A stretch of DNA of 64,000 bases from an uncultured Actinomycetota bacterium (GTDB lineage Bacteria; Actinomycetota; Geothermincolia; Geothermincolales; RBG-13-55-18). The position numbers and the translations under genes are program-made. Shown here one piece after another: positions 1 through 49,014 of this stretch (position 1 is its first letter; each line of letters opens with the position of its first letter). The stretch covers positions 72,452 to 136,451 of the forward strand of contig CAZGWK010000001.1 of NCBI GenBank assembly GCA_964529285.1. Direction: 5' to 3'. Below the pieces are notes generated by a model, which made no database searches, was not told where the DNA came from, and was given only the letters and a program-made list of their open reading frames with translations.

Positions 1-1177
1 CAAGCCGCTGCTCCATATCAACGAGGAGTTTTTCCACACCGAAGGACACGATGAGTTCCTCAACCTCGCCTGCAAGGTGGCCTCGCGGCAGGGGATCACA
101 TACTTCGTCTTCGACCGCGGGGACGAGATTACCGTATCCCAATGCTGCCGTCTCAAACTCAAGTTGAACGAGAAGGACCTGCAGGAGGTCATGACCCCGG
201 AGAGGATGCGTTTCACGGCACTCCAGAACATCACCATCAACCTCCCGCGCATCGCCTTCAAGGCCAGCGGTTCCGACGAGGTACTCTTCCACGAACTTGA
301 AAAAGCAATGCAGATGGTGGCAAAAGCGCACACGCAGAAGAAGAAGTTCATCGCCAGCCTTATGGCGCAAGGTGTAGCGGGGCCTCTGTCCGTGCTCTGT
401 GACGCCAAGGACGGCGAGAAATACCTCAGGATGGACAGGCTTACCTATCTCGTGGGGCTTCTTGGCCTCAACGAGATGGTGCAACACCATACCGGCATGG
501 AGCTGCACGAGTCACAGGAAGCTCTCAAATTCGGGCTCAAGGTGGTAGCCAACATGAACCTCATCTGCAAGAAACTCTCGCAGCAATACGGCATCAACAT
601 GGTGTTGGAGGAGTCGCCGGCCGAGTCCAGCGGGTACCGCCTGGCAAAGCTGGACATGAAGTACTACCCGTCCCAGGCGATGAGCGTGCTCAAAGGCAGC
701 GACGAGAGGGACGAGTTCTATTACACCAACAGCGTGCACCTAAACGTGGAGGCGGATATCGATTACATCGAAAGAGTGCAGAAGCAGAGCCTCTTCCACC
801 CGCTAATAGAGGCGGGAGCGATATGTCACGTCTGGCTGGGCGAGCACGAACCGGATCCGGAATCTATAAAGAACTTCGTCATCAAGACTTTCCGCAATAC
901 CCAGTCGTCACAGCTCGCATTCTCTCCGGAGTTCACGGTGTGCGAGGATTGCAGGACGACCAGCCGCGGCCTGCACGAGGAATGCCCCAATTGCGGTTCG
1001 AACAACGTATACGGAATAACCCGCATCGTGGGCTATTTTTCCAAGGTAACCACATGGAACAAGGGCAAGGTCGGAGAGCTCAAGGAGCGCGTAAAGACGG
1101 GACTGAAAGGGGGTTTGGAGCGTGCAGCATTTGAAGGTCTTCGTGAAGCAGGACTGTCAAAAGTGTCCGGCCGCTAA
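1..1177 (+). CDS. nrdD: anaerobic ribonucleoside-triphosphate reductase NrdD, C-terminal part (5' end outside window)
   Basis: The reading frame is open from position 2. The C-terminus has the Zn-ribbon CEDCRTTSRGLHEECPNCGS and the glycyl-radical motif RIVGYFS that define class III RNR. Confidence 0.9.
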   Translation, partial: KPLLHINEEFFHTEGHDEFLNLACKVASRQGITYFVFDRGDEITVSQCCRLKLKLNEKDLQEVMTPERMRFTALQNITINLPRIAFKASGSDEVLFHELEKAMQMVAKAHTQKKKFIASLMAQGVAGPLSVLCDAKDGEKYLRMDRLTYLVGLLGLNEMVQHHTGMELHESQEALKFGLKVVANMNLICKKLSQQYGINMVLEESPAESSGYRLAKLDMKYYPSQAMSVLKGSDERDEFYYTNSVHLNVEADIDYIERVQKQSLFHPLIEAGAICHVWLGEHEPDPESIKNFVIKTFRNTQSSQLAFSPEFTVCEDCRTTSRGLHEECPNCGSNNVYGITRIVGYFSKVTTWNKGKVGELKERVKTGLKGGLERAAFEGLREAGLSKVSGR

Positions 1178-1367
1178 GGAGGTAGCCAACGGGTTCCCCG
1201 CAACGGAGATATACGACGTCGAGCAGGCGGACGGCTTGGCGGAAGCGGCTTATTACAGCGTACTGTGTACGCCATCGATAGTCGTCGTGGACGAGAGCGG
1301 CAGCGAGGTATTCGCCTGGCGTTGTTCGGTGCCGACTCCCGCGGACATCTCGGAACGTTTTAACTGA
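1122..1367 (+). CDS. small glutaredoxin/thioredoxin-like protein with a CQKC active site (NrdH/YruB-like)
   Basis: 81 aa with a CxxC motif near the N-terminus. A GTG start follows an AAAGGGGG RBS. The gene overlaps the nrdD 3' end and is immediately followed by nrdG. Confidence 0.6.
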   Translation: MQHLKVFVKQDCQKCPAAKEVANGFPATEIYDVEQADGLAEAAYYSVLCTPSIVVVDESGSEVFAWRCSVPTPADISERFN

Positions 1368-1368
1368 C

Positions 1369-2088
1369 ATGTCCTGCCTGGAGAACATCAGGGGTATCCT
1401 GCCATCCAGCATGCTGGATTGGCCGGGAAAGATATGTTCCGTCCTCTTCCTGGCGGGCTGCAATTTTCGTTGTCCCTACTGCCACAACCCGGAATTGCTC
1501 AAAGTGGGAAGTAGCGAAGACAATATCGCCTGGGAGGGCATCGAGCATTATCTGGCAGAACGCAGAGGGTGGATCGACGGGGTCTCGATCACCGGCGGGG
1601 AACCCACCCTGCATGCCGACGTGCCGCTGCTGTGTGAGAGACTGCGGAAATTGGGAATGGCCGTAAAGCTGGACACAAACGGCTCGCATCCGCGCTTGCT
1701 GGCGGAGATATTATCGCAAGGGCTGGTGGACTTCGTGGCCATGGACCTCAAGACCGCCCTGCAGAGATACCCGGAGGTGGTGCGGGCCCCGGTGGATCCT
1801 TCTGCCATCGGGGAGTCTTTAGACATGATCATACGTAGCGGGGTGGAGCATGAGTTCCGCTGCACGTTGGTTCCCGGGCTCGTAGACCTGGACGATCTGG
1901 AATCTCTTGCGCAAAGAGCCGAGGGCGCGAAGGCATTCGTACTACAACAGTTCCGCTCGGACATCACTCTGGACCCCGCCTATACGGGGGCGGAAGGATA
2001 CCCGGAGGCAACCGTGCTCGCATGGGCCAACAAGCTGAACCGGCTCGTACCCACCCAAGTAAGAGGATTGGTGTCCGCCCCGCATTGA
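1369..2088 (+). CDS. nrdG: anaerobic ribonucleotide reductase activating protein (radical SAM)
   Basis: Carries the radical-SAM CNFRCPYCHN cluster motif. The ATG is 1 nt after the upstream stop and lies directly downstream of nrdD. Confidence 0.9.
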   Translation: MSCLENIRGILPSSMLDWPGKICSVLFLAGCNFRCPYCHNPELLKVGSSEDNIAWEGIEHYLAERRGWIDGVSITGGEPTLHADVPLLCERLRKLGMAVKLDTNGSHPRLLAEILSQGLVDFVAMDLKTALQRYPEVVRAPVDPSAIGESLDMIIRSGVEHEFRCTLVPGLVDLDDLESLAQRAEGAKAFVLQQFRSDITLDPAYTGAEGYPEATVLAWANKLNRLVPTQVRGLVSAPH

Positions 2089-2453
2089 TACGCGGCGGTG
2101 ACAGGAAGATTATCCGCACGCGCAGCTGTAGTGTTTGGAGGCAGCATGCATGAGGGGCAGGTCGGTGGAAGAGGTGAGAATAAAACGCAGGCGGTGCAGG
2201 CGGGAAAACAGCTTTGCGTCAGCGAGACGATAATTCCGCGCGGCTCCCGACACAGCTTGAACCTGGTCTATCGCGGTATGGGTACGGGAGGGGGGTTGAG
2301 GACGTCTCCGGACGTGAGGATGGCCGGCAGGGAGTTCGTGGACCTGCGAGATATTTACCCCGCGCCGGTCCCTCGAACAGACGCCGGTTGCTGCCGCCCC
2401 GGTTTTTGCGGCGCCGGAGCGTACGCGCCTGGATCCTGGAGGGATAACAGGAT

Positions 2454-3086
2454 ATGACGGAGAAGGAACAAGGCGGGGCGCAGGACCCTTTCCTGGAGCC
2501 CAGTGAAGTATTGCGTAAGGGCGATCCCGCGGAAATCGCGGAGAGAGCGGGTTTGCCTTTCACGGACGGAGAGTTCAGGCTGTCGTTCATGCGCTGGGAA
2601 ATACGCATCGGTTTCCCGGACCTCTCTTGCGAAGCCCCTGATTTCCTAGCTACCTACGTGGTAAAACTGCTGGCGATCCTCTATATGGCAAATTCCAGGG
2701 CGACCCCGCTTGCCAACCAGTGGGTGCCGTACCGGGAGTTGAAAGACGGTATGTTCTATGCAAAGAGCTTCGCGGATACCGTGGAGGACAGGATATGCCG
2801 CAGGTTTGGCGAGGATTTCGATGGCATGCGTGCAGCCTGCGAGGCGCTGGGCGGAAGGGAAGTCGACCAGGGAGATCTGGGCATGGTGATAAAGACCTTC
2901 CCTCGGCTTCCGCTGCTGTTCATCATCTGGCGGGGGGACGAGGAGTTTCCTCCCAATGCCAGGATATTATTCGACGCCGCGGCGACGGAATATCTCAACG
3001 CTTTCGAACTGCGCATGCTCTGCGGGGAAGTAGTAAACCGTCTTATACGCATAGCAGATGGAAAACTGGAAGTTCCGCCGCCTTGA
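2454..3086 (+). CDS. DUF3786-like protein of unknown function
   Basis: 210 aa behind a GGAGGG RBS. The pattern LAILYM…VPYRELKDGMFY…F…R…FG resembles DUF3786 members. Confidence 0.5.
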   Translation: MTEKEQGGAQDPFLEPSEVLRKGDPAEIAERAGLPFTDGEFRLSFMRWEIRIGFPDLSCEAPDFLATYVVKLLAILYMANSRATPLANQWVPYRELKDGMFYAKSFADTVEDRICRRFGEDFDGMRAACEALGGREVDQGDLGMVIKTFPRLPLLFIIWRGDEEFPPNARILFDAAATEYLNAFELRMLCGEVVNRLIRIADGKLEVPPP

Positions 3087-3208
3087 TGCCGTGGCGCGAA
3101 CGGGTATGGCCTTGCGAGAGTAAGCACACACCCGGGCGTGCGAACCATGGCTCGAAATCATTACAGCAGCAGCACGCTTCATGGCGTTCCGGGAAGGATA
3201 GTACATAA

Positions 3209-3246
3209 TATAGTTAACTATTAAATAGTAAACAGTTAACTATTGG
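3209..3246 (+). promoter_or_regulatory. tandem palindromic operator ATAGTTAACTAT / CAGTTAACTATT immediately upstream of the PadR gene
   Basis: Two copies of the AGTTAACT inverted repeat lie 10–45 bp upstream of the ATG in an AT-rich stretch. Confidence 0.5.
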
Positions 3247-3256
3247 AGGTGATGGC

Positions 3257-3808
3257 ATGGTCTCCAGCGTGGCGACCATGGTATTGGGGCTTCTCGCCGA
3301 AGGGGAAAGGCACGGCTACGATCTCCTGCGTGAGATGGAAGAGAGGGGCATGTCGCGCCGGACGCGCGTCAGCAAGGTGGCGGTGTACAAGGCACTGGCG
3401 CGCATGGAGAGAGAGGGATGTCTTATATCCTGGACGGAAAGGGAAGGGAATCTGCCCGAAAAGCGCATATACGCCATAACCTCCGAGGGTCGTGAGCGGC
3501 TCAAGGAAATGGTATATTCCATCTGCTCCAACCAGGAACCGCTGCGCCTGGATATGTCGGCCGGGATTGCTTTTTTAAGCTGCCTTGACCGCGAGGAGGC
3601 AACGGACGCCTTGCAGGCCAGGATGTCTTTCCTCGCAACGGAGTTAAAGAGGTTGCGCAGGGAGAGGGATATCATGCATGGTATCGCTGATGATATATTC
3701 ATGGATATACTCGCTCGCGAGCAATCCGCTTACCGGGCGGAGTTGCGCTGGTTGCGGGGGATTGTTGATAGAATTGGGGGAAGCGGCTCGACAGCCGCAG
3801 TTAATTGA
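3257..3808 (+). CDS. PadR family transcriptional regulator
   Basis: The N-terminal wHTH (VLGLLAEGERHGYDL…KALARMEREGCLISW) is typical of PadR. Confidence 0.85.
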   Translation: MVSSVATMVLGLLAEGERHGYDLLREMEERGMSRRTRVSKVAVYKALARMEREGCLISWTEREGNLPEKRIYAITSEGRERLKEMVYSICSNQEPLRLDMSAGIAFLSCLDREEATDALQARMSFLATELKRLRRERDIMHGIADDIFMDILAREQSAYRAELRWLRGIVDRIGGSGSTAAVN

Positions 3809-3829
3809 ACGGGTGCAAAGGAATCCGCC

Positions 3830-4444
3830 GTGACGGGAGACGACAGGTTAAAAAGGATCCTGGAGGAAGCGGAGCAATATGCCTTCGAGGTCGGGTACCG
3901 CCGCTTCAAGATGGACGAGCTCTCGCAGAGGCTGCGCATGAGCAAGAAGACCATCTACGAATCCTTTTCGTCAAAGGATGAGTTGTTCACGACCGTACTC
4001 AACCGCAGGGCGGGGAAGATTCTCAGAGGCATGCAGGAGATCATGGACCTGGACGCCGACGCCATGACCAAACTCTACCTGATGAGCAAACACGTGGTTG
4101 ACGAGGTCTCGTACATAAAGCCTTTTCTGGTAAAGGAAGTAGAGACATTCTTCCCGGAGGTCTTCATCGTATATGGCGATTTCTACCGCAAGATCGTCAG
4201 CGCTCTTACGCAGATAATAGAGGAAGGGGCAAGGGAGGGGGAGTTCCGCTCCGATGTCAATCCAGTTGTCCTCGCATACCTGGTGCAGGGCATCGTCGAT
4301 CTCTCAAGCAGCCCTTATCTGCTCATAGAGAGCGGCCTCAGTCTGGACGAGGTATTCATGGCTTTTATGAAGATCCTCATGGAGGGGATCGCGCGCAAGA
4401 ACGGGGTGAAAATCGCAAGTAGAGGGAAGTTATCGCTATCTTGA
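3830..4444 (+). CDS. TetR/AcrR family transcriptional regulator
   Basis: The N-terminal HTH (FKMDELSQRLRMSKKTIYESFSSKDELF) matches the TetR signature. Confidence 0.85.
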   Translation: MTGDDRLKRILEEAEQYAFEVGYRRFKMDELSQRLRMSKKTIYESFSSKDELFTTVLNRRAGKILRGMQEIMDLDADAMTKLYLMSKHVVDEVSYIKPFLVKEVETFFPEVFIVYGDFYRKIVSALTQIIEEGAREGEFRSDVNPVVLAYLVQGIVDLSSSPYLLIESGLSLDEVFMAFMKILMEGIARKNGVKIASRGKLSLS

Positions 4445-4474
4445 CAGAAAGGAATGGGAGTGCTTGAATAACCT

Positions 4475-4506
4475 AAACTAATAAACGATATTTAGTTTAT
4501 TAGTTT
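4475..4506 (+). promoter_or_regulatory. perfect 12-bp inverted repeat AAACTAATAAAC-N8-GTTTATTAGTTT, a candidate TetR operator
   Basis: It lies in an AT-rich intergenic region between the TetR gene and the thioesterase–SDR–ACAD operon. Confidence 0.45.
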
Positions 4507-4673
4507 CCATTCGTAGCGTTATCGCTCTATACTTCAGGTCACAGCGGCGGCAGGGAAACTGGTTAACTTAGCATTCCTCGGGTTAAAAGCGCCGGTAAAA
4601 GGCCCGATCGATCTCATCATGATGACCGAGGTCCGGCAAACAGGGTTCGCAGCCGTGCGTCGAAAAAGGGGAA

Positions 4674-5102
4674 GTGGAGATGGAGGAAAAAGTAACCGGG
4701 GATAGCAGGGAATTTATCGCAAGAGACCCTTTCGCGGCCAGTATAGGCGCCGAGCTCATGGAGATGCGGCCGGGATATGCCAGGGTCGCGATGAAGCTCG
4801 CAGAAGGCCATCTCAACTTCATGGGCATGATACATGGAGGGGTGATCTTTTCCCTTGCAGACGTCGCTTTCGGAGCGGCGGCGAATTCCTTCGGGAGCAG
4901 GGCGATGGCGTTATCGGTGGGGATAGATTTCCTGGCAGCACCGAGACTCACGGGGGAGATGACGGCGGAGGTCGAGTTGGTGACGCGTGCGGGGAAGATG
5001 GGGTTCTATCGCATGAAGGTGGATGACGCGGAGGGATCTACCGTAGCGCAGTGCCATGGCTGGGCTTACCATACAGGAAAACCATTGCAGGCAGAGAAGT
5101 AG
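4674..5102 (+). CDS. PaaI/4HBT-family hotdog thioesterase
   Basis: 142 aa with the HGGVIFSLADVAFG motif. Confidence 0.8.
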   Translation: MEMEEKVTGDSREFIARDPFAASIGAELMEMRPGYARVAMKLAEGHLNFMGMIHGGVIFSLADVAFGAAANSFGSRAMALSVGIDFLAAPRLTGEMTAEVELVTRAGKMGFYRMKVDDAEGSTVAQCHGWAYHTGKPLQAEK

Positions 5103-5126
5103 ACAGGTCGGATCAGGCTAGGAGGG

Positions 5127-5891
5127 ATGCTTATGTCTCTTGAAGGCAAAGTAGCGCTGGTGACGGGTGGTTCGGGGGGGTTGGGCAGGGTGCACGGACT
5201 CGTGCTTGCCGAGCACGGTGCGGATGTAGCCCTCGTTTACAACCGCAACGAAGCGAAGGCCCTTGAGGTAGCGAAGGAGATCGAGGAAAAAGGCCGCAAG
5301 GCGCTTGCTGTCAGGATGGACCTGGCCGATGAGTCGTCCATCAACGAAGGTGTCGCGCAGGTGGAGCGGGAGCTTGGCAGCGTGGATATTCTGGTAAATA
5401 ATGCGGCCCAGGGCATCGTACGCGCCATCACCGTAACCGATATGAGCAAGGATGACTGGGACGCCGATGTGGCAGTGAATATCACCGCTCCTTTCCTGCT
5501 CATTAAAGCAGTCTTCTCGGGTATGGCCGATAAAGGATGGGGGCGCATCATCAACGTATCCTCGGTCACGGGGACCATGGGCGGATTCGGACAGTGCAGC
5601 TACGCCGCCACCAAGGCGGGGATGATCGGGCTCACGAAGACGGTCGCCCTGGAGGGGGCGCGCAAGAACATAACCTGCAACGCCGTGGTGCTGGGAGTAT
5701 TCGACGCGGGAAGCTTCTATGACGTGGCGGAGCCGTTCCGCGAGCGCATCACCAAGAGAGTCGCCCTGCGTCGCTCAGGCGACCCCAGGGAGTTGTCGGA
5801 GGTAATAGCGTTCCTTGCCTCCGAGGAAGCGAGCTTCGTTACCGGCGAGGCAATCGAGGTGAGCGGCGGCATAAGCCTTTTCACGTTCTAG
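5127..5891 (+). CDS. SDR family oxidoreductase (3-oxoacyl/3-hydroxyacyl reductase-like)
   Basis: Has TGGSGGLG, NNAA and YAATKAG motifs. Confidence 0.85.
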   Translation: MLMSLEGKVALVTGGSGGLGRVHGLVLAEHGADVALVYNRNEAKALEVAKEIEEKGRKALAVRMDLADESSINEGVAQVERELGSVDILVNNAAQGIVRAITVTDMSKDDWDADVAVNITAPFLLIKAVFSGMADKGWGRIINVSSVTGTMGGFGQCSYAATKAGMIGLTKTVALEGARKNITCNAVVLGVFDAGSFYDVAEPFRERITKRVALRRSGDPRELSEVIAFLASEEASFVTGEAIEVSGGISLFTF

Positions 5892-6010
5892 GGGGACGCG
5901 GGACCGAACCGTAAAAGGCCAGGGGTCCGCGAGCGTACGCGCGCTGCTGAGGCGCCCGGCCCGAGCCCGCGAGACAAGGAAACCACCGCAATAGAATACG
6001 GAGGAGAGAA

Positions 6011-7150
6011 ATGGGATTCTACCTGACGCCCGAGCAGGGGGCGCTGCGCAAAGAGATACGAAAACTGGCAGAGGAAAAGGTTGCCCCCAGGGCGGCGGAT
6101 ATAGACCGCTCCGGGGAGTATCCCTGGGACATGCAGAGACTCCTCGCTTCCCAGGGATTACTCGGCTATGCCATCCCCGAGGAGTACGGAGGGTCGGGAG
6201 CGGACCTCCTGTCCTGCTGTATAGTGGGGGAAGAACTGGCACGCATATGCGCCACGACATCCCTCATCTTCGTCGTGCAGAAACTTGCCGTGTACCCCAT
6301 CGTCATAGCCGGCTCTGATGAGACGAAACAGAAGTACCTGCCTGCCGCTGCCAGAGGCGAGAAGCTGGCGGCTTTCTGCCTCACCGAGAGGGATTCCGGT
6401 TCCGACGCCGGCGCCACCAAGACGATAGCCCGCAGGCATGGCGACGATTATATAATATCCGGCGAGAAGTGTTTTATAACCAACGGGGGACTGGCAAAGA
6501 TACACTCCCTTTTCTGCATGACGGACCCCGAAAAGGGATACAGGGGCATAAGCGCCTTCTGTGTGGGGGAGGCGGAGGGCCTCTCCGCGGGAAAGATAGA
6601 GGATAAAATGGGGCTGCGCGGCGCCCAGGTCACAGAGCTTAGCTTCGACGAGTGCCGCGTCCCCGCCGGGGACCGCCTGGGCGAGGAGGGAACGGGTTTT
6701 GTGACCGCCATGAAGACGCTGGACAACTCCCGGCCCCTGGTGGGCGCACAGGCCCTGGGCATCGCGCAGGGCGCCATGGAGTGCGCAGTGGAGTGGGCGC
6801 GGGAACGCCGGGCATTCGGCAAGCCCATAGGCATGCTGCAGGGGGTCGGTTTCATATTGGCGGACATGGCCACCGAGGTGGAGTCGTCCCGCCTGCTGGT
6901 GTACAAGGCCGCCAGCATGGCGGACAACAAGGACCCCGAACTGTCTATATATTCCGCCATGTCCAAGATGAAGGCTTCTGATACGGCCATGCGGGTGACC
7001 ACCGACGCCGTCCAGGTCATGGGGGGTTACGGTTACATGAAGGACCACCCGGTGGAGCGCATGATGCGCGATGCCAAGATCACGCAGATATACGAAGGCA
7101 CCAACCAGGTGCAGAGGCTGGTGATCTCGCGGACGCTGCTCAAGGGGTAA
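6011..7150 (+). CDS. acyl-CoA dehydrogenase
   Basis: 379 aa with typical ACAD N-, middle and C-terminal domain motifs, including the catalytic Glu region YEGTNQVQ. Confidence 0.9.
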   Translation: MGFYLTPEQGALRKEIRKLAEEKVAPRAADIDRSGEYPWDMQRLLASQGLLGYAIPEEYGGSGADLLSCCIVGEELARICATTSLIFVVQKLAVYPIVIAGSDETKQKYLPAAARGEKLAAFCLTERDSGSDAGATKTIARRHGDDYIISGEKCFITNGGLAKIHSLFCMTDPEKGYRGISAFCVGEAEGLSAGKIEDKMGLRGAQVTELSFDECRVPAGDRLGEEGTGFVTAMKTLDNSRPLVGAQALGIAQGAMECAVEWARERRAFGKPIGMLQGVGFILADMATEVESSRLLVYKAASMADNKDPELSIYSAMSKMKASDTAMRVTTDAVQVMGGYGYMKDHPVERMMRDAKITQIYEGTNQVQRLVISRTLLKG

Positions 7151-7304
7151 CGGATACGGGCACCACGCGGGGGATGTGTCCTGACGGGATCCCGCATTGC
7201 TGCGGCGGGCAGCCGGGGGCCGCGCCGCTTGAGAGATGGGCGTTACCCGGGCCGCTATGCGGGAAGAAAAGATTGAAAATACTCGAAAAGAGGGGTTGAT
7301 GAAG

Positions 7305-8978
7305 ATGGCAGACAGCGAGGAGATCAGGCAGGGATTGGAAGAGTGGAGGGAGGAGAAGGAGGGCTGGGAAGAGCGCAACCCGGATTTAAGGAGCGACGCC
7401 GGCATCCCGGTAAAGGACCTCTACACACCGCTTGACACCGCTGACATCGACTACGTAAGAGATATCGGCTTTCCCGGCCGTCCGCCCTATACCAGGGGCG
7501 TTTACCCGACGATGTATCGCGGAAGGCACTGGACTATCCGCATGTTCAGCGGACATGGGACTCCGGAGGAGACCAACGACCGCTGGCGGATGCTTTACGA
7601 AGAGGGCGAGACGGGTTTTTCGGCCGCCGTGGATTCACTGACCTTCTCCGGGGTCGATCCCGACCAGGACGTGCACGGCGCAGCTCACGAGGTAGGCAAG
7701 GAAGGGGTGCCCCTCTATTCCATACGCGGCGTGGAAGCACTGGTCGAGGACCTGCCCATCGACAAGATGAGCGTGGCCCTCGTAGTGGAGCCCATGACCT
7801 CCGCGGCGATAACCTCCATGTACTTCAACGTGGCCAGAGAGCGCGGTATGCGCAAGGAACAGCTTGCCGGTACTACCCAGAACGATATCCTCACCATGAC
7901 CATAGGCTACATACCGTGGGGATCGCTGAAACCCGCCGACCTCCTCAAGCTCGCATGCGACCTCATCGAGTACTGTACCGCGATGGGCGAGGCGCCCCGC
8001 TGGAACCCCGTCAATTTTACGACTTATAACTACCGGGAGGGCGGCATAGACGCCGTACAGGAGATAGGGATGGGGCTGGCGAACGCCGTTGCCCATATAG
8101 AGGAACTGCTGCGGCGGGGATGGAAGATCGACGACTTCGTCCACCGGCTGGCCTTCCATCTCTCGGCACACCGTGACTTCTTCGAGGAGATCGCCAAGTA
8201 CCGGGCGGCCCGCAAACTGTGGTACCGGCTGATGAAGGAACGCTACCAGCCGGAGAATCCCGATGCCTACCGGTTCCGCTTCCACGTGCAGACGGCGGGG
8301 TGCTCCCTGACGGCAAAACAGCCCAAGGTAAACATAATGCGTACCGCTTACCAGGCGCTCGAGGCCGTCCTCGGGGGTACGCAGTCCCTGCATACCAACT
8401 CCTACGATGAAGCCATCTGTCTTCCTTCCGAGGAGTCGGTAAGGCTCGCGGTGCGCACCCAGGAACTCATCCAGGAGGAGACCGGGGTCGCCAACGTGGT
8501 GGATCCCCTGGCGGGGTCGTATTACGTGGAATCGCTCACGCGCGAGCTGGAGGAGCGCATCTGGGATTATTTCATGCACATCGAGGAAATGGGGGGCGTA
8601 GTCGAGGCCCTTAACACGGGCTGGCTCTTCAACGAGATGAGCAAGGCTTTCAACAAGCGGCGCAGGGACCAGGAGAGCGGCGACGAGAGGATAATCGGCG
8701 TCAACTGCTACGTGATGGAAGACGAAGAAACGACCCCGCCTTTCCGTACCAATCCCAGGGCATCAGACATAGAAAAGGAGAGACTGGCAGCGCTGCGGCG
8801 GGAAAGGGACGAGACGGCGGTGGCCGGACTCCTGGACCGCTTGCGCCAGGTGTGCGAGAAAAGGGAAAACGTCCTGCCGGTGGTGAGCGAACTCACCATG
8901 GCGGGCGCCACCCTGGGCGAGATAACCGGTGTCTATCGCGAGATATGGGGCATCTGGCAGTTGCCCTTCGTAGCCTGA
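7305..8978 (+). CDS. acyl-CoA mutase large (catalytic) subunit, methylmalonyl-CoA mutase family
   Basis: Homologous to the MCM/ICM catalytic TIM-barrel (RMFSGHGTPEETN, TAGCSLTAKQP). The ATG at 7305 has a GAGGGG RBS; the ORF track starts earlier at 7236. Confidence 0.85.
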   Translation: MADSEEIRQGLEEWREEKEGWEERNPDLRSDAGIPVKDLYTPLDTADIDYVRDIGFPGRPPYTRGVYPTMYRGRHWTIRMFSGHGTPEETNDRWRMLYEEGETGFSAAVDSLTFSGVDPDQDVHGAAHEVGKEGVPLYSIRGVEALVEDLPIDKMSVALVVEPMTSAAITSMYFNVARERGMRKEQLAGTTQNDILTMTIGYIPWGSLKPADLLKLACDLIEYCTAMGEAPRWNPVNFTTYNYREGGIDAVQEIGMGLANAVAHIEELLRRGWKIDDFVHRLAFHLSAHRDFFEEIAKYRAARKLWYRLMKERYQPENPDAYRFRFHVQTAGCSLTAKQPKVNIMRTAYQALEAVLGGTQSLHTNSYDEAICLPSEESVRLAVRTQELIQEETGVANVVDPLAGSYYVESLTRELEERIWDYFMHIEEMGGVVEALNTGWLFNEMSKAFNKRRRDQESGDERIIGVNCYVMEDEETTPPFRTNPRASDIEKERLAALRRERDETAVAGLLDRLRQVCEKRENVLPVVSELTMAGATLGEITGVYREIWGIWQLPFVA

Positions 8979-8993
8979 GATGGGAGGAGTGAG

Positions 8994-9401
8994 ATGGAGA
9001 AAAAGATAAGGGTCCTCCTCTTCAAGCCGGGCCTCGACGGCCACTGGCGCGGGATCATGACCGTCTCGAAGGCGCTCTCCGAGGCGGGAATGGAGACGAT
9101 ATTCTTTGGGTTCAAGACCGTCGCGGGAGTGGTCGAGGCGGCCATCCAGGAGGACGTTGACATTATAGGCTTCTCCGTGCATTCCGGTGCGCATCTCGAG
9201 TGGGCCGGCGAGCTCGTGAGGGAGTTGGAGGAGAAGGGCGCCAGAGAAGATTTCATATTGCTCGTCGGAGGGGTATTCCCGGAGCAGGACCACGCCGAGC
9301 TGAAGAAGATAGGCATGCACGGTGTCTTCGGGCCCGGCAGTGCGACCGCTGACATCGTCGCCTTTATAGAGGAAATAACGGGAAGCGTGAAAGTCGATTG
9401 A
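8994..9401 (+). CDS. cobalamin-binding small subunit of acyl-CoA mutase
   Basis: 135 aa with the DxHxxG motif (DGHWRG) and a B12-binding Rossmann fold. Confidence 0.8.
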   Translation: MEKKIRVLLFKPGLDGHWRGIMTVSKALSEAGMETIFFGFKTVAGVVEAAIQEDVDIIGFSVHSGAHLEWAGELVRELEEKGAREDFILLVGGVFPEQDHAELKKIGMHGVFGPGSATADIVAFIEEITGSVKVD

Positions 9402-9505
9402 GGGCGGAGGGATAAAGACACCTGCAGGTTAACGGGCGGACCGTCGAAGACGCTCATGGGACGGACGACCGCCCGGTACCGCTAGCAACTTAAGGAGGTC
9501 GGGTG

Positions 9506-10771
9506 ATGTCGGGAAAGAGAAAGCTGGGCAGGGGAGTGGCCATCGTCGGAGCGGGCATGTCGAATTTCGGGATGTTCCCGGACAAGGACTCCAAAGACGT
9601 CTTCGCCGAGGCCTACAGCGAGATGCTCGAGAACGTGGACAAGGGAATCGATCCCGCGGACATCGAGGCTGCGTGGATCGGCAATTTCAGCAACGATTTC
9701 TTCGTTCACCAGGCGCACTGGGGGCCTATAATCGCGGATCTGGCCGGATTGGCGCCCAAGGCGGTGACGCGGACCGAGGGCGCTTGTGCCTCCAGCACCC
9801 TGGCGATGAGAGACGGTCTCATGGCTATCGCTTCCGGCATGTACGATATCGTGCTTGCGGGCGGGGTGGAGGAGATGTCCAAATGTAGCACTGAGGAGGT
9901 CACCGAGGGGCTGGCCCTGGCCACGTCCCCCTACGAGGGACAGGCGGGTTATACTTTTCCCGGCGTCTTCGGGGCCCTGGCTACCGCTTATTTCAATAAA
10001 TACGGGGCGGGGCGGGAGCACCTCATGAACATCACCATCAAGAGCCATAATAGCGCTCCCCTCAATCCCAAGGCGCAGTTCAAGCAGACCATAGCGGACC
10101 TCATGCAGGCGAAAAAGGCAAGGGCCGAGAAGAAGGGCCAGCCCGTACCGGACTGGGCCGATGAGAAGGAAGCTCTGTGGGACCCCTCCTTCAACCCGCC
10201 GGTAGCCTGGCCAATGCACCTGTACGATTGCTGCCCCATAAGCGACGGGGCCAGCTGCATACTCCTGGTGGCGGAGGAGATCGCCAAGGATTTCACCGAC
10301 GATCCCATCTACGTAGTGGGATTCGGACAGGGGAGCGGCAGGGGCCTGCACGCCTGCCCCAGTCTCACCTCATTCGAGGCCAACAAGCAGGCTGCCGCCG
10401 AGGCCTACGGTACTTCGGGGTTGACCCCCAAGGACATCCAGTTCGCAGAGGTACACGACTGCTTCAGCATCGCGGAACTCATCCACATAGAGGACCTGGG
10501 ATTCTTCGAGGAAGGCAAGGGATTCAAGGCCATAGCGGAGGGCGAGACCAGGCGCGACGGGCGCATGCCTATCAATACCTCGGGTGGCCTCAAATGCAAG
10601 GGGCACCCCGTGGGCGCTACGGGGACGGCACAGATGTTCGAAATCTGGAAGCAGCTGCGCGGGGAAGCGGGTGAACGGCAGATCCCGGGAAGGGACCTCT
10701 ACGTCGGGGCTACCCAGAACCTGGGCGGCACCGGCGGCACCTGCACCTTCACCATATTCGAAAGGAGATAG
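9506..10771 (+). CDS. thiolase-family protein (SCP-x/Paa-type acetyl-CoA C-acyltransferase)
   Basis: Contains the thiolase active-site Cys region TEGACASS and C-terminal GATG motifs. An AAGGAGG RBS lies 7 nt upstream. Confidence 0.85.
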   Translation: MSGKRKLGRGVAIVGAGMSNFGMFPDKDSKDVFAEAYSEMLENVDKGIDPADIEAAWIGNFSNDFFVHQAHWGPIIADLAGLAPKAVTRTEGACASSTLAMRDGLMAIASGMYDIVLAGGVEEMSKCSTEEVTEGLALATSPYEGQAGYTFPGVFGALATAYFNKYGAGREHLMNITIKSHNSAPLNPKAQFKQTIADLMQAKKARAEKKGQPVPDWADEKEALWDPSFNPPVAWPMHLYDCCPISDGASCILLVAEEIAKDFTDDPIYVVGFGQGSGRGLHACPSLTSFEANKQAAAEAYGTSGLTPKDIQFAEVHDCFSIAELIHIEDLGFFEEGKGFKAIAEGETRRDGRMPINTSGGLKCKGHPVGATGTAQMFEIWKQLRGEAGERQIPGRDLYVGATQNLGGTGGTCTFTIFERR

Positions 10772-10775
10772 GGCA

Positions 10776-11192
10776 ATGGAAGAACGGGCTTTCAGCGATA
10801 TCACCTACCGTCAGTTCCTGGAAGAGGACAAGTTCATGGGCTCGAAATGCGTGAAATGCGGGCAGCTCTACGTGCCCCCTCGCCATTTCTGCATCGCGTG
10901 CTTCGGCGAGGACATGGAGTGGCACGAGATGGAGGGCGAAGGCGAACTTTCCGCCTTTACCTGCATATTCGTAGCTCCCCCTCATATGGTAGCCATGGGT
11001 TACGATCGCAAGAACCCCTACTGCACCGGAGTGGTGACCCTCAAGGAGGGCCCCAGGATGGTCGCCCGTATAGAAGGGGTGGAGGCTGCCAACCCCGATT
11101 CCATCAAGATAGGCACGCCCATGAAAGTTGAGTTCGTACACCGCGGGGAAGGGGAGGAGGCCACCACCTACCTGGCGTTCAGGCCCAGTTGA
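10776..11192 (+). CDS. DUF35 OB-fold/Zn-ribbon protein (thiolase partner)
   Basis: The Zn-ribbon CVKCGQ…CIAC is followed by an OB fold. The ATG is 5 nt after the thiolase stop, behind an AAAGGAG RBS. Confidence 0.8.
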   Translation: MEERAFSDITYRQFLEEDKFMGSKCVKCGQLYVPPRHFCIACFGEDMEWHEMEGEGELSAFTCIFVAPPHMVAMGYDRKNPYCTGVVTLKEGPRMVARIEGVEAANPDSIKIGTPMKVEFVHRGEGEEATTYLAFRPS

Positions 11193-11249: not shown

Positions 11250-12302
11250 TCACAGCGTTTTTGCCGTCAAGGTGAGGGTGCCGCGCTCGTCATGTTCGTA
11301 GCTCAAGCTCGAGCTCTTCCCGCTGAGCAGCTCGCATATCCCCTGCAGCAATCCCGCCACCAGCAGGTGCGGCAGGGCGTTATCGACTGTCGCTTCCATG
11401 CCGCCGGCGGAGGTATCGAAGTTCACGATGTTGCCCATGCCCCGCAGCGCCACCTGCCGCATGAGGTAACCCGGCTCGCGGCGCACTTCCTCCATCTGCA
11501 CGGTCTCGACGACGTAGCGGCGCTGGGCCTCCACGATGGTCCTGGATAGCTCCTCACCCAGCTCGTCCTCGAGTTCGCGGAACACGGACTGGATGCCCTC
11601 CGCACCGAGGACGGCCATTCTCCTCCCCGTGTTACGGTCGGTGATGGTACCTTCCTCCAGGTCCCAGGTATAGTCCTTGAATTCCAGAGGGATGCCGCAC
11701 TGCGGGCAGCGGTCATATGATATCGCCCCCGCAATGCGGGGGAGGACCTTGCGCTCGAGGCGGGATACGATCTCTTCCTCCAGTTCCTCTCCCGGCGTGA
11801 TGGTGATCACCAGCCCCCCGTCCCTCTCCTCGAACTGGAGTTCGGCCGGGACCCCCTCAACCACGTTGAAGACAGCCGCGATATCGCCGCTGAAGAGAGT
11901 GCGGGAGTAGATATTGCGGCCGAAGACCTTTATGAACTCGCCCGCCTTGAAATCTACGAGCTCGTAATGGCCGTAGCCAAGTATGGAACCCCGAGCGGCT
12001 ATGGTCTCGTACACCTTGCGGCGCAGCAGGGCCTTGACGATCAGTAGCTTCAGGCCCGAGAACATGCCCTGTACGTAATTGAGGGTGGACTTGCGCTTGC
12101 CCTCGATGACGATGCGGTCTATGAGCACGCCGACCAGCTCCTCCAGGTTCGCGAGCATGCGGTTCATGCCCTCGGCCTCGTAGAATATCACGCGGTGGTC
12201 CGGGTTTTTCGTCTGGGTAATGGTACCGTCTGGATTCCACGAGTTCTCCCTGGAGAACTCCTCCGGTACCCCGCATAATGAACATATCTTGACCCTGGCC
12301 AT
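11250..12302 (-). CDS. hypothetical protein with two homologous halves, each opening with a CxxCG(V/I)P Zn-ribbon-like motif
   Basis: 350 aa with a strong RBS (GGGGGCAGGAG). The internal repeat KICSLCGVPEEF vs RCPQCGIPLEF is each followed by a ~150-aa domain. No confident family assignment. Confidence 0.5.
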   Translation of the reverse strand: MARVKICSLCGVPEEFSRENSWNPDGTITQTKNPDHRVIFYEAEGMNRMLANLEELVGVLIDRIVIEGKRKSTLNYVQGMFSGLKLLIVKALLRRKVYETIAARGSILGYGHYELVDFKAGEFIKVFGRNIYSRTLFSGDIAAVFNVVEGVPAELQFEERDGGLVITITPGEELEEEIVSRLERKVLPRIAGAISYDRCPQCGIPLEFKDYTWDLEEGTITDRNTGRRMAVLGAEGIQSVFRELEDELGEELSRTIVEAQRRYVVETVQMEEVRREPGYLMRQVALRGMGNIVNFDTSAGGMEATVDNALPHLLVAGLLQGICELLSGKSSSLSYEHDERGTLTLTAKTL

Positions 12303-12872
12303 CTCCTGCCCCCTTCATTCTCAGGATTACCCCTGGCGCCGGCGCGGCACGCGCTCTGTCCGTACGCTTCGAGTATAAAGGTTACCGGTAGGTATGAAAA
12401 TATTTCCAGCAGTAATCAGACACTGGAATGGTAATTGTATGTTACAAACATGATAAGCACTGTATGTACCTATTCATATACCCAAACATGGAGAAATTGG
12501 CTTATCGGCGCGCCTCCGTTTGTGAGCAGCATAATGCAGGCATGGGGTGAAAGCCGCTGGTTACGGTCGCAAGCAGGCGTGGCTCGAAGTGAGATATCCT
12601 TATCTGGACGCCTCCAGGCGCAAGGGCATGCAGAAGGTGGGGCGAAAGGCAATGGGAGTGCTAGGACGCTTTGCGCGGGCTCGAGAGCGTGCGGGATGTC
12701 CGTGACGGAACGTAAAAGCGCATGGCGACGGCGGAGGCCGGCGGAAAATCGCCCGTACAACATAAACGCCGATAATATATCTTATGTAAAGTTAACATAA
12801 CTAGCTATTTCCCCTTGTGCGACGCCTCTCATATACCGCGAATCCCTCGACTTCTCGCCCTCCGCGTCTATA

Positions 12873-12901
12873 AAGGGCCCGCAGCGAAGGCGGGCCCTTT
12901 T
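12873..12901 (-). terminator. GC-rich hairpin GGGCCCGC-N8-GCGGGCCC flanked by T/A runs, downstream of the acyl-CoA ligase
   Basis: An 8-bp perfect stem is followed by TTTT on the + strand and preceded by TTTATA on the - strand. It is bidirectional in appearance. Confidence 0.4.
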
Positions 12902-12916
12902 CCCTGAAGCTGGCGT

Positions 12917-14638
12917 TTATACCTCGAGGTCCTGTGCCTGGTCCCGCAGCTCGCGCCTGAGGATCTTTCCCGCTCCGCTGGCTGGCAGCGCCTCTACTAT
13001 CCTGATCGCGCGTACCTTCTTATATGCAGCCAGCTTTTCGTTGGCATATGCGAGGAGCTCATCCTCGCCGGCTTCCTGGCCGGGATTCAACTCCACGAAG
13101 GCGATGGGTATATCGCCTGCGCGCTCGTCGTATTTCCCCACAACGGCGGATTGAGCTATCGCGGGGTGGGCGTTGAGAACATCCTCGAGATCGCGCGGAT
13201 AGACGTTGTAGCCTTTATAGATGAGCATATCCTTCTTGCGGTCTACGATGTACAGGTAGCCGTCCTCGTCGAATTTTCCGATATCGCCCGTATATAACCA
13301 GCCTTCGCGCAATACCCCTGCCGTCTCCTCGGATTTGTTCCAATAGCCCAGCATCACCTGGGGGCCCTTGATGCAGATCTCTCCTATCTCCCCTACCGCC
13401 ATCTCCTCCTCGCCCTTCTCGGGCTCCATTATCCTGATCTCCGTGTCCTGCATGGGAAGCCCGACGGACCCGAGGCGGAACCCTTCCCGGCTGGGAGGGT
13501 TGGCGCAGCAACCCATGGTGCACTCGGAGAGGCCGTAGGCTTCGCATATCACGCCGGGTATTTTATCGCTAAGGGTCTCCAGGAGATGACGTGGGATGGG
13601 AGCGGCTCCCGAGGCGACCATCCTGATGTCGGAGAAGTCGGTATCCTGGAACAGCGGGTTCTCCACCAGGGGGATAAAGAGCTGAGGTGCCCCGCCGAAA
13701 ACGGTGGCGCGGTACCTGGAAATAGCCTGCAGGTACTCCGTCGGGTCGAAGCGCGGGAAGACCACCAGCGTATTCCCGCCCAGTAGCTGCATGGAGAGAT
13801 ATCCGATGGCCCCCATGGCGTGGAACCAGGGCACCACGATAAGGGAGATCTCCGTACCCTGGCTGACGGGATGATCTTCGTCGCGGTCGCCCTCCATGCG
13901 CTTGACCTTGAACATGCCGTCCTCGTAGAGGATATCCCCACCGCCGAACCAGTAAGCGAACTGGCAGCAATTGACCACCCCGTTGTAGTGGGTGATCATC
14001 ACCCCTTTCGGGGTCCCCGTTGTGCCGCCGGTATAAGCGATATGGGCCAGGTCCTCCCTGGCGTCGAACTCCACCTGCGGCGGCTCGGCGGGATAGTCGC
14101 TTAGCATGCTCACGAAGTCTATGGTCCCCTCCGGCAACGGCTGTTTCTGCAGCATCTTCACGGGAGCGGACAACGGAGGGTAGCAATCCGCCAGGCTGAC
14201 AACGATGGTGCGTTTTACCGGGCTATTGGGGATGACCTGCTGCGGGACGCCGAAAAGCATATCCAATCCGATGAAGGTCTCGACCTCCGCGTCGTTGAGC
14301 TGGAAGTCTATCTCCCTCTCCGCCAGCAGGGGGCTCATGGGCACGAAGATGGCGCCTGCCTTGAGCAGCCCGTAATAGGCTATGGCGAACTGGGGGCAGT
14401 TGGGAAGGTGTATTCCCACCCGGTCCCCCTTCTTGACCCCCATAGCCGCAAGGGCGGTCGCGAAACGGTCCGAAAGGGTGTCCAGTTCCTGGAAGGTTAT
14501 CTCCATTCCCCCGAAGATGATGGCGTTACGCCACGGCCACTGCAGGGTTGCAGAGCGCAAGATCTGTTGAATGGGTACCTCCGGGTAAGAAAGGTTCTCA
14601 AAAACACCCTTCGGCCAGTACTTGAAGTTCTTTTCCAT
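12917..14638 (-). CDS. long-chain/medium-chain acyl-CoA ligase (AMP-binding)
   Basis: 573 aa carrying the AMP-binding signature YTGGTTGTPKGV and C-terminal GKI/KILRREL. Confidence 0.9.
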   Translation of the reverse strand: MEKNFKYWPKGVFENLSYPEVPIQQILRSATLQWPWRNAIIFGGMEITFQELDTLSDRFATALAAMGVKKGDRVGIHLPNCPQFAIAYYGLLKAGAIFVPMSPLLAEREIDFQLNDAEVETFIGLDMLFGVPQQVIPNSPVKRTIVVSLADCYPPLSAPVKMLQKQPLPEGTIDFVSMLSDYPAEPPQVEFDAREDLAHIAYTGGTTGTPKGVMITHYNGVVNCCQFAYWFGGGDILYEDGMFKVKRMEGDRDEDHPVSQGTEISLIVVPWFHAMGAIGYLSMQLLGGNTLVVFPRFDPTEYLQAISRYRATVFGGAPQLFIPLVENPLFQDTDFSDIRMVASGAAPIPRHLLETLSDKIPGVICEAYGLSECTMGCCANPPSREGFRLGSVGLPMQDTEIRIMEPEKGEEEMAVGEIGEICIKGPQVMLGYWNKSEETAGVLREGWLYTGDIGKFDEDGYLYIVDRKKDMLIYKGYNVYPRDLEDVLNAHPAIAQSAVVGKYDERAGDIPIAFVELNPGQEAGEDELLAYANEKLAAYKKVRAIRIVEALPASGAGKILRRELRDQAQDLEV

Positions 14639-15243
14639 GCTACTCCCTCCCCTTCAGGACTGATTCTGACCTTACAGGACGGCGGTCTCTGCTTGCACGG
14701 ATTTCGAAACCGCCGCAGCAACGCGAGACAGCAGAGAAGCTGCGTGATGCAGGTGATCTGTTTCCGCTGTCCCCACTTTTCTGCCCCGCCGCTCAAGTTT
14801 GTGGTGCGTTTATGCCCGTATTGCCGTTAGCGAATAAACGTATGATAACCCATAATCACCGCTCTTTCCAGCTTGCGCGGCGAGGTTGGCTCCGTTTGAG
14901 AGTGAGCCCGCAGCAAGTTAAGCTTTTTCCCTATGCCCCGATTCCGCAAGGGTTAAAGGTGCGCGATTTTGCTCAGCCTCACGGCGCTTTTGGGGCAAGC
15001 AATACTACCAAAATGGCCTTATTTTCGCAAAATCACCGCTTTTCTAATACTAAAGGTCGATAGTATGGAGGTGGATTTTGGCCGAGAATATGTATAGGAC
15101 TTTTTAAAGTCCAACGCCCCACCCGGAAAGCAGCTGGCCCCTCAGGTCAGCTGCTTCCAATTTCACTAGCAATTATCCGGGGGTTTTCCAGACCCGAGAA
15201 GCGTGAGAACGGGCGATTGCGAATACGCTGCAGACAGGGCAAG

Positions 15244-16368
15244 TCAGGTCTTGTTGATGGTTGCAGCGACACCGATCAGATCTCCTTTATCCCTGAACAG
15301 TGGGAATACGTTGACCAGAACGGTCTGAGTGCCGGGGTCGTCATACACGGGCTGCGTATAATAGAGCCCCTGCCGTTCACGGAAACAGTCCTGGAAGCCC
15401 CGTGCAAGTTGATGCCCGCGCGTATCCATGCCGCGCAGCACCTCTATAGCGCTGCGTGCGAGGAGATCCGCCTGCTGCGCGCCGAGAAAGCGCTCTGCCT
15501 CCTGGTTGATTATCATCACCATACCGCGTTCATCGAGTATTAGAACGCCCATGCGTGCCTCGTTGATGAAGCTCTCCAGGTAACCCTGTGTTTTCTTGGT
15601 GGTATCGAGCGCGCGCCTGGTGAGGTTGTAGAGCTTCGCATTGGTCAGCGAGTTGCCGAGCACCTCGCAAACCGCCTGCAGCAGTGTCTTCTCCTCGTCG
15701 GAGTAGCCGCCCCTGGTGGTCCCGGCCACCATGACTCCCGTAATGCGGTTACCGGCCTTTATCGGCAGGGCATAACGTACCATGCCCGTGCGGCGGGAAG
15801 CCCCCTCGCCGCCGTTATCCTCGACAGGTTCGCCGCACTCGGCGACCATTCCCACTATACCCTCCCCTATTGCGAAATCGGGCAGCTCCTCGAGGGGCGT
15901 TTCGGTACCGTAGCGGGCGCGAGGAACGAACCGCCCGGTTTGTTCGTCCAGGATGTAAATGGAACCGAGAGAGGAGGTTAGGGGCATCGCCGACTCGAGC
16001 GAATTTTCGAGCAGCCCCTGCGCGCCGAGGTTCGCATTGGCGCTGGATTGTATGTTGTTTAGTACCTGCAGGAGCATGTTTGATTTCTGGAGCCTGTCCA
16101 CCATGGCCTCGAGCCTTTTGTTGTATTCGGCGCTGCGGGTGAATATGTATGCGGCAAAAAGTACCAGACCGAGTATGAGGGCGGCATCGAAGATAATCTT
16201 GAAGGTAGTGCTGCCGAAGAAATCCGAAAAACGGTCGACGTTCTGAACCAGTATGAGAAAGAGAATCACCACGATCATCAGAATCATCAGGATGACCGAG
16301 AAAATGCTCACGGGTCTGCGCTCCTTATCTACGCGCCCTCCGTTCATGGATTGCCGTTTCCTCCTCAT
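15244..16368 (-). CDS. membrane-anchored GAF/PAS sensor protein with no recognisable output domain
   Basis: An N-terminal TM helix is followed by GAF-like and PAS-like regions. The start ATG overlaps the GDPD stop (ATGA). The ORF track extends further 5' across the GDPD frame, which is judged spurious. Confidence 0.65.
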   Translation of the reverse strand: MRRKRQSMNGGRVDKERRPVSIFSVILMILMIVVILFLILVQNVDRFSDFFGSTTFKIIFDAALILGLVLFAAYIFTRSAEYNKRLEAMVDRLQKSNMLLQVLNNIQSSANANLGAQGLLENSLESAMPLTSSLGSIYILDEQTGRFVPRARYGTETPLEELPDFAIGEGIVGMVAECGEPVEDNGGEGASRRTGMVRYALPIKAGNRITGVMVAGTTRGGYSDEEKTLLQAVCEVLGNSLTNAKLYNLTRRALDTTKKTQGYLESFINEARMGVLILDERGMVMIINQEAERFLGAQQADLLARSAIEVLRGMDTRGHQLARGFQDCFRERQGLYYTQPVYDDPGTQTVLVNVFPLFRDKGDLIGVAATINKT

Positions 16369-48935: not shown

Positions 48936-48986
48936 CATTCCTCCCTTCATATATGTAAACCCGGGGTTGAGACCCCGATACACAAC

Positions 48987-49014
48987 GTAAAAAAGCCGAG
49001 TTCAAGCTCGGCTT
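48987..49014 (-). terminator. rho-independent terminator downstream of recA–recX
   Basis: On the - strand the stem AGCCGAG-loop-CTCGGCT is followed by TTTTTT. Confidence 0.6.

Follow-up and report, generated by a model that had tools for sequence, protein, structure and literature searches.

A two-module V4R-like protein, its acyl-CoA synthetase neighbour and a putative dif site in an uncultured actinobacterium

The locus and its features

The gene studied here lies on the reverse strand of the window, by which we mean the whole 64-kb stretch of DNA that was analysed, and it encodes a 350-aa protein whose ORF (11250-12302) is preceded by a ribosome-binding site, GGGGG/AGGAG. The positions of its two modules, its cysteine pairs, and the surrounding features are collected in Table 1. 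Downstream, the gene faces an operon for an acyl-CoA mutase and a thiolase, and the tail-to-tail arrangement described in the initial annotation was confirmed, with the operon ending at 11192. Its upstream neighbour encodes an AMP-binding acyl-CoA synthetase, which was matched by NCBIfam fatty-acid-CoA ligase models, in every case below the cut-off. The gap between the synthetase and the 350-aa gene (12303-12916) measures 614 nt and had been singled out beforehand as unusually long; it indeed ranked third longest of about 60 gaps in rough gene calls of the window, and a mis-called start exaggerates at least one of the gaps that rank above it.

Table 1. Features of the locus, with positions in the window and the basis on which each was assigned
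Feature	Position	Strand	Basis
Convergent operon: acyl-CoA mutase large subunit, B12-binding subunit, SCP-x-type thiolase, DUF35/ChsH2-like OB protein	7236..11192	+	
Gene for the 350-aa tandem V4R-like protein	11250..12302 (stop codon included)	-	ORF; identical protein on record P0001
C-terminal module, residues 191-350, architecture as N-terminal module	11253..11732	-	Model, hhalign, BLASTP
Second CxxC (Cys199, Cys202)	11697..11708	-	Invariant, 221/221 homologues
N-terminal module, residues 1-190	11733..12302	-	Model secondary structure and hhalign against C-terminal half
First CxxC (Cys7, Cys10)	12273..12284	-	In 211/221 full-length homologues
Inferred 5' UTR (~65 nt) with ribosome-binding site AAGGGGG..AGGAG	12303..12371	-	Position relative to conserved promoter
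Sigma-70-type promoter TTTTCA, 17-nt spacer, TATACT	12372..12400	-	Promoter scan; ~70 nt before ATG
Non-conserved filler (~360 nt) from promoter to putative dif, with AT-rich stretch, palindrome, and GC-rich 'core'	12401..12764	.	Unalignable
Putative dif: AACGCCGATAA-TATATC-TTATGTAAAGT (XerC arm, 6-bp centre, XerD arm)	12765..12792	+	dif similarity, conservation, skew position
Intrinsic terminator hairpin of the acyl-CoA synthetase gene, GGGCCCGC..GCGGGCCC then UUUAUAG	12872..12900	-	dG -22.1 kcal/mol, z -2.05
Acyl-CoA synthetase (AMP-binding), upstream neighbour of the 350-aa gene	12917..14638	-	Pfam annotation on record

Sequence family, predicted fold and cysteines of the 350-aa protein

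Two homologous halves, each opening with CxxCG(V/I)P(E/L)EF, had been proposed for the protein, and both claims were borne out. CSLCGVPEEF occupies residues 7-16 and CPQCGIPLEF residues 199-208, which places the cysteine pairs at Cys7/Cys10 and Cys199/Cys202. BLASTP aligned the halves over 73 aa, the first 73 residues, with an E value of 5e-8, and profile-profile comparison of the N-terminal with the C-terminal half by hhalign gave a probability of 99.2% and an E value of 3.6e-19 over 153 columns, covering whole modules. According to the secondary structure of the model, the N-terminal module runs from the CxxC knuckle through three strands and several helices into a beta-beta-alpha-beta-beta unit.

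A word-indexed protein search found 137 homologues, and a profile search of 1.84 billion cluster representatives returned 552 at E values up to 0.001. Among the full-length matches listed, nearly all are about 350 aa long and cover both modules, and no clear output or extra domain was seen in the best 150 of the 552 representatives. Every named homologue is called 'hypothetical' and belongs to an Actinomycetota assembly; the 63 reference-genome loci with homologues belong to Candidatus Solincola, Geothermincola, Anoxymicrobiaceae, and related assemblies. Several paralogues occur per assembly, at least seven of them in Zod_Metabat.1188, and some stand in tandem. Searching Pfam, NCBIfam, and PDB sequences with the single 350-aa protein yielded only short, sub-threshold chance matches of the CxxC type, and the same was true when 48 homologues or the 48-sequence profile were run against these libraries. 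V4R (Pfam PF02830) and XylR_N gave zero matches to the protein at E values up to 10, and when the 48 homologues were scanned at E values up to 1, neither was among the 25 families listed. These searches support the placement of the 350-aa protein, as judged by sequence, outside every characterised family, and the statement to that effect in the initial annotation holds. The protein is cytoplasmic and has no output domain.

An AlphaFold2 model was built from the 48-sequence alignment (pLDDT 91.2, pTM 0.90), and its two modules are alike in architecture. Its best and longest structure matches were with the ligand-binding sensory domains of DmpR and PoxR. Match scores were 10.7 for YslB, 10.6 for the PoxR sensory domain, and 9.3 for the V4R protein MJ1460, with lower values for Bet3/TRAPP subunits (about 9), BcsD (about 8), and H-NOX (about 7). 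The Foldseek comparison, one of the checks that had been proposed, agreed. In the predicted structure each module is thus shown to have the XylR/DmpR/PoxR sensory-domain fold (V4R / Bet3 / H-NOX superfamily), a membership resting on the shared three-dimensional fold. From the structure matches of the model, the earlier guess of a V4R-like fold is therefore right at the fold level, but it does not extend to Pfam V4R membership by sequence, where the HMM has no match.

The known members of this superfamily differ from the 350-aa protein in several respects. It has no sequence-level match to the sensory (A) domain of DmpR/PoxR/MopR/XylR (XylR_N + V4R), and, unlike the sigma-54 activators DmpR and XylR, it carries neither an AAA+ module nor a DNA-binding domain and consists only of two sensor-like modules. 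Zinc in DmpR is held by Cys151, Glu172, Cys177, and Cys185 (PMC7264223), whereas C151/E172/C177/C185 have no conserved counterpart in the 350-aa family, whose only conserved Cys are those of the N-terminal CxxC knuckles; neither the fusion nor the internal Cys/Glu zinc site of a DmpR/XylR-type activator was thus found. Stand-alone V4R proteins (PF02830, MJ1460, PDB 2oso) and YslB (PDB 3njc) are single-domain proteins, whereas the 350-aa protein is a tandem duplicate with CxxC knuckles that the V4R HMM misses. In contrast to Bet3/TRAPP and BcsD, it has no TRAPP or cellulose-synthase partners encoded near its gene. Both Bet3 and BcsD are scaffolds and not ligand binders, a counter-point to ligand binding among the structural relatives. 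Unlike H-NOX, the family has no conserved His, and hence no haem ligand; the proximal His and the Y-x-S-x-R motif of H-NOX were not found, and no His exceeds 36% in any column.

All four cysteines are present in 211 of the 221 full-length homologues, and the other 10 are N-terminally truncated rather than substituted; no further Cys or His is conserved among these 221. Going by this alignment, the four cysteines are the sole conserved metal-ligand candidates, and in the simplest reading they would form one metal site common to both halves. The label 'Zn-ribbon protein' given in the initial annotation had to be dropped: there is a single CxxC per module, the two lie 189 residues apart, and zinc-finger or zinc-ribbon matches were short and sub-threshold only. 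With one CxxC at the N terminus of each module, the four cysteines would instead coordinate one structural metal ion, Zn or perhaps Fe, by which the two N-terminal arms are clamped together. The tight, phenol-binding dimer of DmpR arises from two sensory domains whose N-terminal regions are intertwined (PMC7264223); the tandem copy may be a covalently linked version of this interlocked dimer with a different metal site.

The CxxC pairs might also be redox-active rather than structural. They could work as a thiol-disulfide switch, for which the methanogen regulator MsvR, with its Cys-containing V4R domain, offers a parallel, or they could form a rubredoxin-like Fe(Cys)4 centre; in either case the protein would be a redox sensor or electron carrier. 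Cysteines are reported to modulate the redox-sensitive DNA binding of MsvR (PMC3729527). Weak rubredoxin-like domain matches were present in 11 of 48 family members (best E 0.0055), the family profile weakly matched rubrerythrin (E 0.019), Fer4 genes adjoin homologues in three loci, and anoxic or subsurface samples are the source of all assemblies from which the host lineage is known. However, the rubredoxin and rubrerythrin matches are short, below cut-off, and typical for any CxxC knuckle, and a redox partner is not consistently nearby. We regard a redox role as doubtful and prefer the structural metal site.

The 614-nt spacer and its conserved block

AT-rich segments flank a GC-richer core in the 614-nt spacer, and four elements in it are conserved: the terminator hairpin, a block of 25-28 nt, the sigma-70-type promoter, and the ribosome-binding site. 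The promoter is kept in orthologues as TTTTCT or TTTGCA, 17 nt, and TATACT or TATAAT, with GGTAACC in the 17-nt spacer. The terminator hairpin is kept with changed loops in the orthologous loci L144, L009, L010, and L004 and is absent in L002, where no terminator separates the synthetase from the gene. Between synthetase and gene there are 614, 621, 654, or 449 nt, whereas L002 and L003 have only 110 and 115 nt there. The filler between promoter and block could not be aligned with L144, L009, L004, or L010, and it is absent in L002 and L003.

The initial annotation had interpreted the whole stretch as an undescribed regulatory RNA or small-molecule-sensing unit; under this reading, metabolite sensing by a structured 5' leader, a riboswitch, or a small RNA would control the 350-aa gene. 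The length of the gap, its GC-rich centre between AT-rich flanks, and a minimum-free-energy fold that pairs both ends of the region would suit such a leader. The end-to-end pairing, however, was found to involve the XerC arm of the putative dif and a 9-mer that is missing from orthologues. No Rfam family matched the 614 nt at E values up to 10, and the 316-nt core folded no better than its dinucleotide shuffles (z +0.74 on the gene strand and +1.20 on the other strand), so that the GC-richer core is present but its long-range complementarity is not supported. The proposed check of conservation and covariation across homologous loci likewise gave no sign of a leader: L144, at 88% protein identity, is the closest orthologue, and yet the core cannot be aligned with it; in L002 and L003 the spacer measures only about 110 nt; and the conserved promoter lies just about 70 nt before the ATG, leaving an inferred 5' UTR in which RNAalifold found no consensus structure. 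Neither covariation between promoter and start codon nor a known riboswitch or cis-regulatory RNA family was thus seen, and we consider a structured leader extremely improbable.

Two further elements that had been counted towards the leader can be placed otherwise. The palindrome ATGTT-ACA-AACAT does exist (12439-12451), but a 5+5 palindrome is near chance level in 614 nt (roughly 0.6 expected, as an estimate), and it is not kept in orthologues. The strong hairpin terminator at the far end is also real, but it ends the synthetase gene and is no part of a leader. The sequence TTTTGGTAGTATTGCTT, upstream of the synthetase, was not accepted as a sigma-54 element, its GG-to-GC spacing being 7 nt and not 10. 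Also set aside was the idea that a MITE- or IMEX-like insertion, with the inverted 9-mer TTATCGGCG / CGCCGATAA at its ends, makes up the GC-rich core: the repeat orientation is wrong for a Xer-integrated element, and the 8-mer CGCCGATA is found nearby in only one of 69 other motif loci (L004), where it lies upstream.

The conserved block is, by sequence similarity and position, a putative chromosomal dif (XerC/XerD) site. Its two 11-bp arms, whose inner parts are inverted, enclose a 6-bp centre, and like known dif sites it is 28 bp long with an 11-6-11 layout and ATAA/TTAT inner arms. It lies in non-coding, locally AT-rich DNA, with a GC of 0.44-0.49 near it compared with about 0.58 for the window. 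Its central hexamer is TATATC, and across matches the centre reads TRTATS. Published sites are the predicted dif of Frankia alni, CACGCCGATAA-TGCACA-TTATGTCAAGT, that of E. coli, GGTGCGCATAA-TGTATA-TTATGTTAAAT, and that of B. subtilis, ACTTCCTAGAA-TATATA-TTATGTAAACT (PMC3025954); no actinobacterial dif had been experimentally confirmed at the time of that paper (PMC3025954). Identity of the window site with the F. alni prediction extends to 20 of 22 arm positions, and its XerD arm agrees with that of B. subtilis at 10 of 11. The block is invariant in the orthologous loci, and it is intergenic and unique in the 64-kb window; the exact 25-mer occurs once in each of six reference loci, with one locus per assembly among those fetched. 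It was also found in 70 metagenome contigs from many environments, whose flanks and neighbour genes are unrelated; in some of them it lies about 80 nt downstream of clpP and is followed by a convergent gene.

The position of the block relative to strand asymmetry was then considered. Across the window, cumulative G-C reaches its maximum at 11280, which is 1.5 kb away from the putative dif, and GC skew is +0.094 to its left and -0.059 to its right. Gene strand switches at 11.2 kb: all 13 genes in 1-11192 (12 gene calls and the DUF35 gene) are on the plus strand, and nearly all in 11250-60622 are on the minus strand. The skew flips the same way in L003, L009, L010, L110, and L144, and it flips across the site in 8 of the 17 loci with enough flank, with none flipping in the opposite direction. 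The site thus has the location of a terminus within the 64 kb examined, a size at which skew and gene-strand bias are confounded. The criteria applied are those used in the literature for calling dif (PMC2731167, PMC3025954). As for the recombinase genes XerC and XerD, no Phage_integrase domain was found in the ten window ORFs of suitable size that were scanned.

The invariant block could alternatively be a transcription-factor operator or a promoter element of the 350-aa gene, given that every orthologous locus has it ahead of the gene in the same orientation, that it lies only 55-72 nt from the start in L002 and L003, and that it holds TTTACA and TAnnnT-like hexamers. This is nevertheless very unlikely: the spacing of the hexamers is unfit for a promoter, the block does not precede a homologue at all in L032, and the 25-mer recurs in the 70 metagenome contigs among unrelated flanks, downstream of clpP and between convergent genes. 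Its 11-6-11 dif architecture, its match to published dif sites, and its coincidence with the switch of skew and strand argue in the same direction. An Ms1- or 6S-like RNA promoter for the block was tried and rejected: the synteny reported for Ms1 is a different one, neither the sequence nor the length of the downstream region is conserved, the fold z is positive, and Rfam returned nothing in 20 motif-bearing loci. We therefore retain the putative dif, at which XerC/XerD would resolve chromosome dimers. On the gene strand, the 614-nt spacer would then comprise, in order, the synthetase terminator, the putative dif, about 360 nt of unconstrained filler, the sigma-70-type promoter, and the 5' UTR of about 65 nt.

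Synthetase neighbours and proposed function

The acyl-CoA synthetase gene stands directly upstream, on the same strand, of the orthologues in L002, L003, L004, L009, L010, and L144, and likewise directly upstream of divergent paralogues in L032, L037, and L050. ORFs in the related loci were called with a GC3-based filter. Among the 113 ORFs immediately flanking 66 homologues, the commonest families were AMP-binding (12), thiolase (5), and polysaccharide flippase-like (4), with B12-binding/radical SAM (3), Fer4 (3), glycyl-radical enzyme (2), and ADP-forming CoA ligase (2) also represented. Of 106 immediate neighbours, 12 were AMP-binding synthetases, whereas the remaining ORFs of these loci included 9 in 462 (Fisher p 7e-5); with the six orthologous loci removed, the counts were 6 of 96 and 9 of 420 (p 0.04). 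Most paralogues lie in unrelated contexts, among transporters, peptidases, Fe-S proteins, polysaccharide genes, and glycyl-radical enzymes; the synthetase link therefore spans about one fifth of the loci and is marginal without the orthologues. The link of the family to acyl-CoA activation is thus real but partial. A tie to acyl-CoA metabolism, as had been suggested earlier, stands where the neighbouring synthetase is concerned, but the neighbourhood analysis found no evidence of a B12 link.

By analogy, the 350-aa protein most likely acts as a small-ligand binder that works with acyl-CoA synthetases. Like its structural relatives, it would bind a small hydrophobic molecule, with an organic acid or an acyl compound as the probable ligand. 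Its role towards the cognate acyl-CoA synthetase encoded alongside would then be that of a sensor, carrier, or modulator acting through protein contacts. It might otherwise be a scaffold or assembly factor that binds no small ligand, as Bet3 is in TRAPP and BcsD in cellulose secretion. This is improbable, given that the best and longest structural matches are the ligand-binding sensory domains of DmpR and PoxR and that CoA-ligases show the strongest neighbour enrichment; the flippase neighbours, moreover, are convergent, and the same loci also hold a divergent thiolase.

Taking protein and spacer together, we put at roughly 0.6 the probability that the gene encodes a two-module V4R-like ligand-binding protein working with the synthetase and that the 614-nt stretch is a replication-terminus intergenic region with a putative dif, not a structured RNA. 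A more far-reaching proposal, which we offer only tentatively and think rather unlikely, is that the family represents stand-alone sensors of a class not described before and restricted to Geothermincolia-type Actinomycetota. In such proteins two DmpR-like modules would share one inter-module Cys4 metal site, and the paralogues would recognise different organic acids and, through direct contact, gate or feed their cognate synthetases, so that ligand control would need no DNA-binding output.

Neither the protein family nor the dif result overturns current knowledge. The dif assignment, putative as it is, would place the replication terminus of this genome and would account for the conspicuous gap without new RNA biology, and the 25-mer may serve as a probe for finding likely terminus regions among metagenome contigs of actinobacteria. 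At the predicted fold level, an unannotated family of about 550 clusters at 50% identity, for which there is no Pfam model, joins the V4R/XylR-sensor superfamily. Its trait is a fused pseudo-dimer with one CxxC per module, present in multiple copies in a poorly known, uncultured actinobacterial class. If the synthetase link is functional, the family could reveal how organic acids are sensed or channelled in these anaerobes.

Position of dif relative to the synthetase gene

In two related loci, L002 and L003, the predicted XerC/XerD chromosome dimer resolution site (dif) was found in a short spacer running from the AMP-binding acyl-CoA synthetase gene to the homologue of the tandem V4R-like gene, and the L002 spacer lacked a terminator hairpin. 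Here dif would then fall inside the transcript of a probable operon comprising the synthetase gene and the homologue. In Candidatus Solincola sediminis (L032), the orthologous synthetase (75% identical) was followed 3′ by a divergent paralogue (33% identical) of the tandem V4R-like protein and a 534-aa ORF; dif was positioned only beyond all of these, and a terminator-like hairpin came directly after it.

The window also carries the dif XerC-arm core CGCCGATAA in inverted form, as TTATCGGCG; this copy lies at a distance of 253 bp from dif and borders the nonconserved GC-rich stretch that separates dif from the gene promoter. The copy is wrongly oriented for a Xer-integrated element. The copy was not found in orthologous spacers and may have arisen by chance.

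Features discussed in this part (window numbering unless a locus is named)
Feature	Position	Strand	Remark
Conserved block upstream of synthetase	14997-15165	-	~170 nt; near-invariant across orthologous loci
GAF/PAS gene	15244-16347		
Inverted dif arm core	12502-12510	+	
RNase Y-recA gap	48984-49664		681 nt
dif-bearing spacer, synthetase to homologue, L002	6890-7001		about 110 nt
dif-bearing spacer, synthetase to homologue, L003	4041-4157		about 110 nt
Region around the divergent paralogue, 534-aa ORF and dif, L032	6977-9814		
Three V4R-like paralogues, L067	7001-10530		

Conserved block upstream of the synthetase gene

The conserved block occupies part of the 605-nt gap from the GAF/PAS gene to the synthetase gene. 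It contains a 29-nt and a 17-nt core, each matched exactly in 10 fetched loci. Further elements of the block are TTTTGGTAGTATTGCTT, resembling an extended -10 element (TGgTAGTAT), the palindrome GGACTTT-AAAGTCC and a hairpin made of GGAAGCAGCTG..CAGCTGCTTTCC. The distance from TTTTGGTAGTATTGCTT to the synthetase ATG was 58 nt in L032, whereas it was about 360 nt in the window. A search of Rfam returned no match for the block. It is probably the promoter and operator region of the synthetase gene, and possibly also includes a long 5′ UTR.

Paralogue clusters, gene polarity and terminus synteny

Tandem or adjacent pairs of V4R-like paralogues occurred in L006, L026, L065 and L071, and three followed one another in L067; such clusters suggest recent local duplication.

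Gene-strand polarity was very strong across the window (1-64000): up to 11.2 kb the plus strand carries the genes, and from there as far as about 60.6 kb they are on the minus strand. Both a second strand switch and the cumulative-skew minimum were located near 60636. The minus-strand block carries the housekeeping genes recA, RNase Y, miaA, dapF, fmt, gap, whiA and rapZ. Between RNase Y and recA, no ORF passed the GC3 filter, and a small gene such as recX may have been overlooked in this gap.

Among metagenome loci, the dif 25-mer adjoined clpP in L074, L083, L084, L090, L098, L105, L119, L126, L132, L135 and L141, lying about 80 nt downstream of clpP in contigs with a callable strand. Several of these contigs shared common flanks (ggggca.ccc...caggcaccc...ctgcactaa 5′ of the site and gcttttcc 3′). 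The group looks like a distinct actinobacterial lineage in which terminus synteny is conserved.
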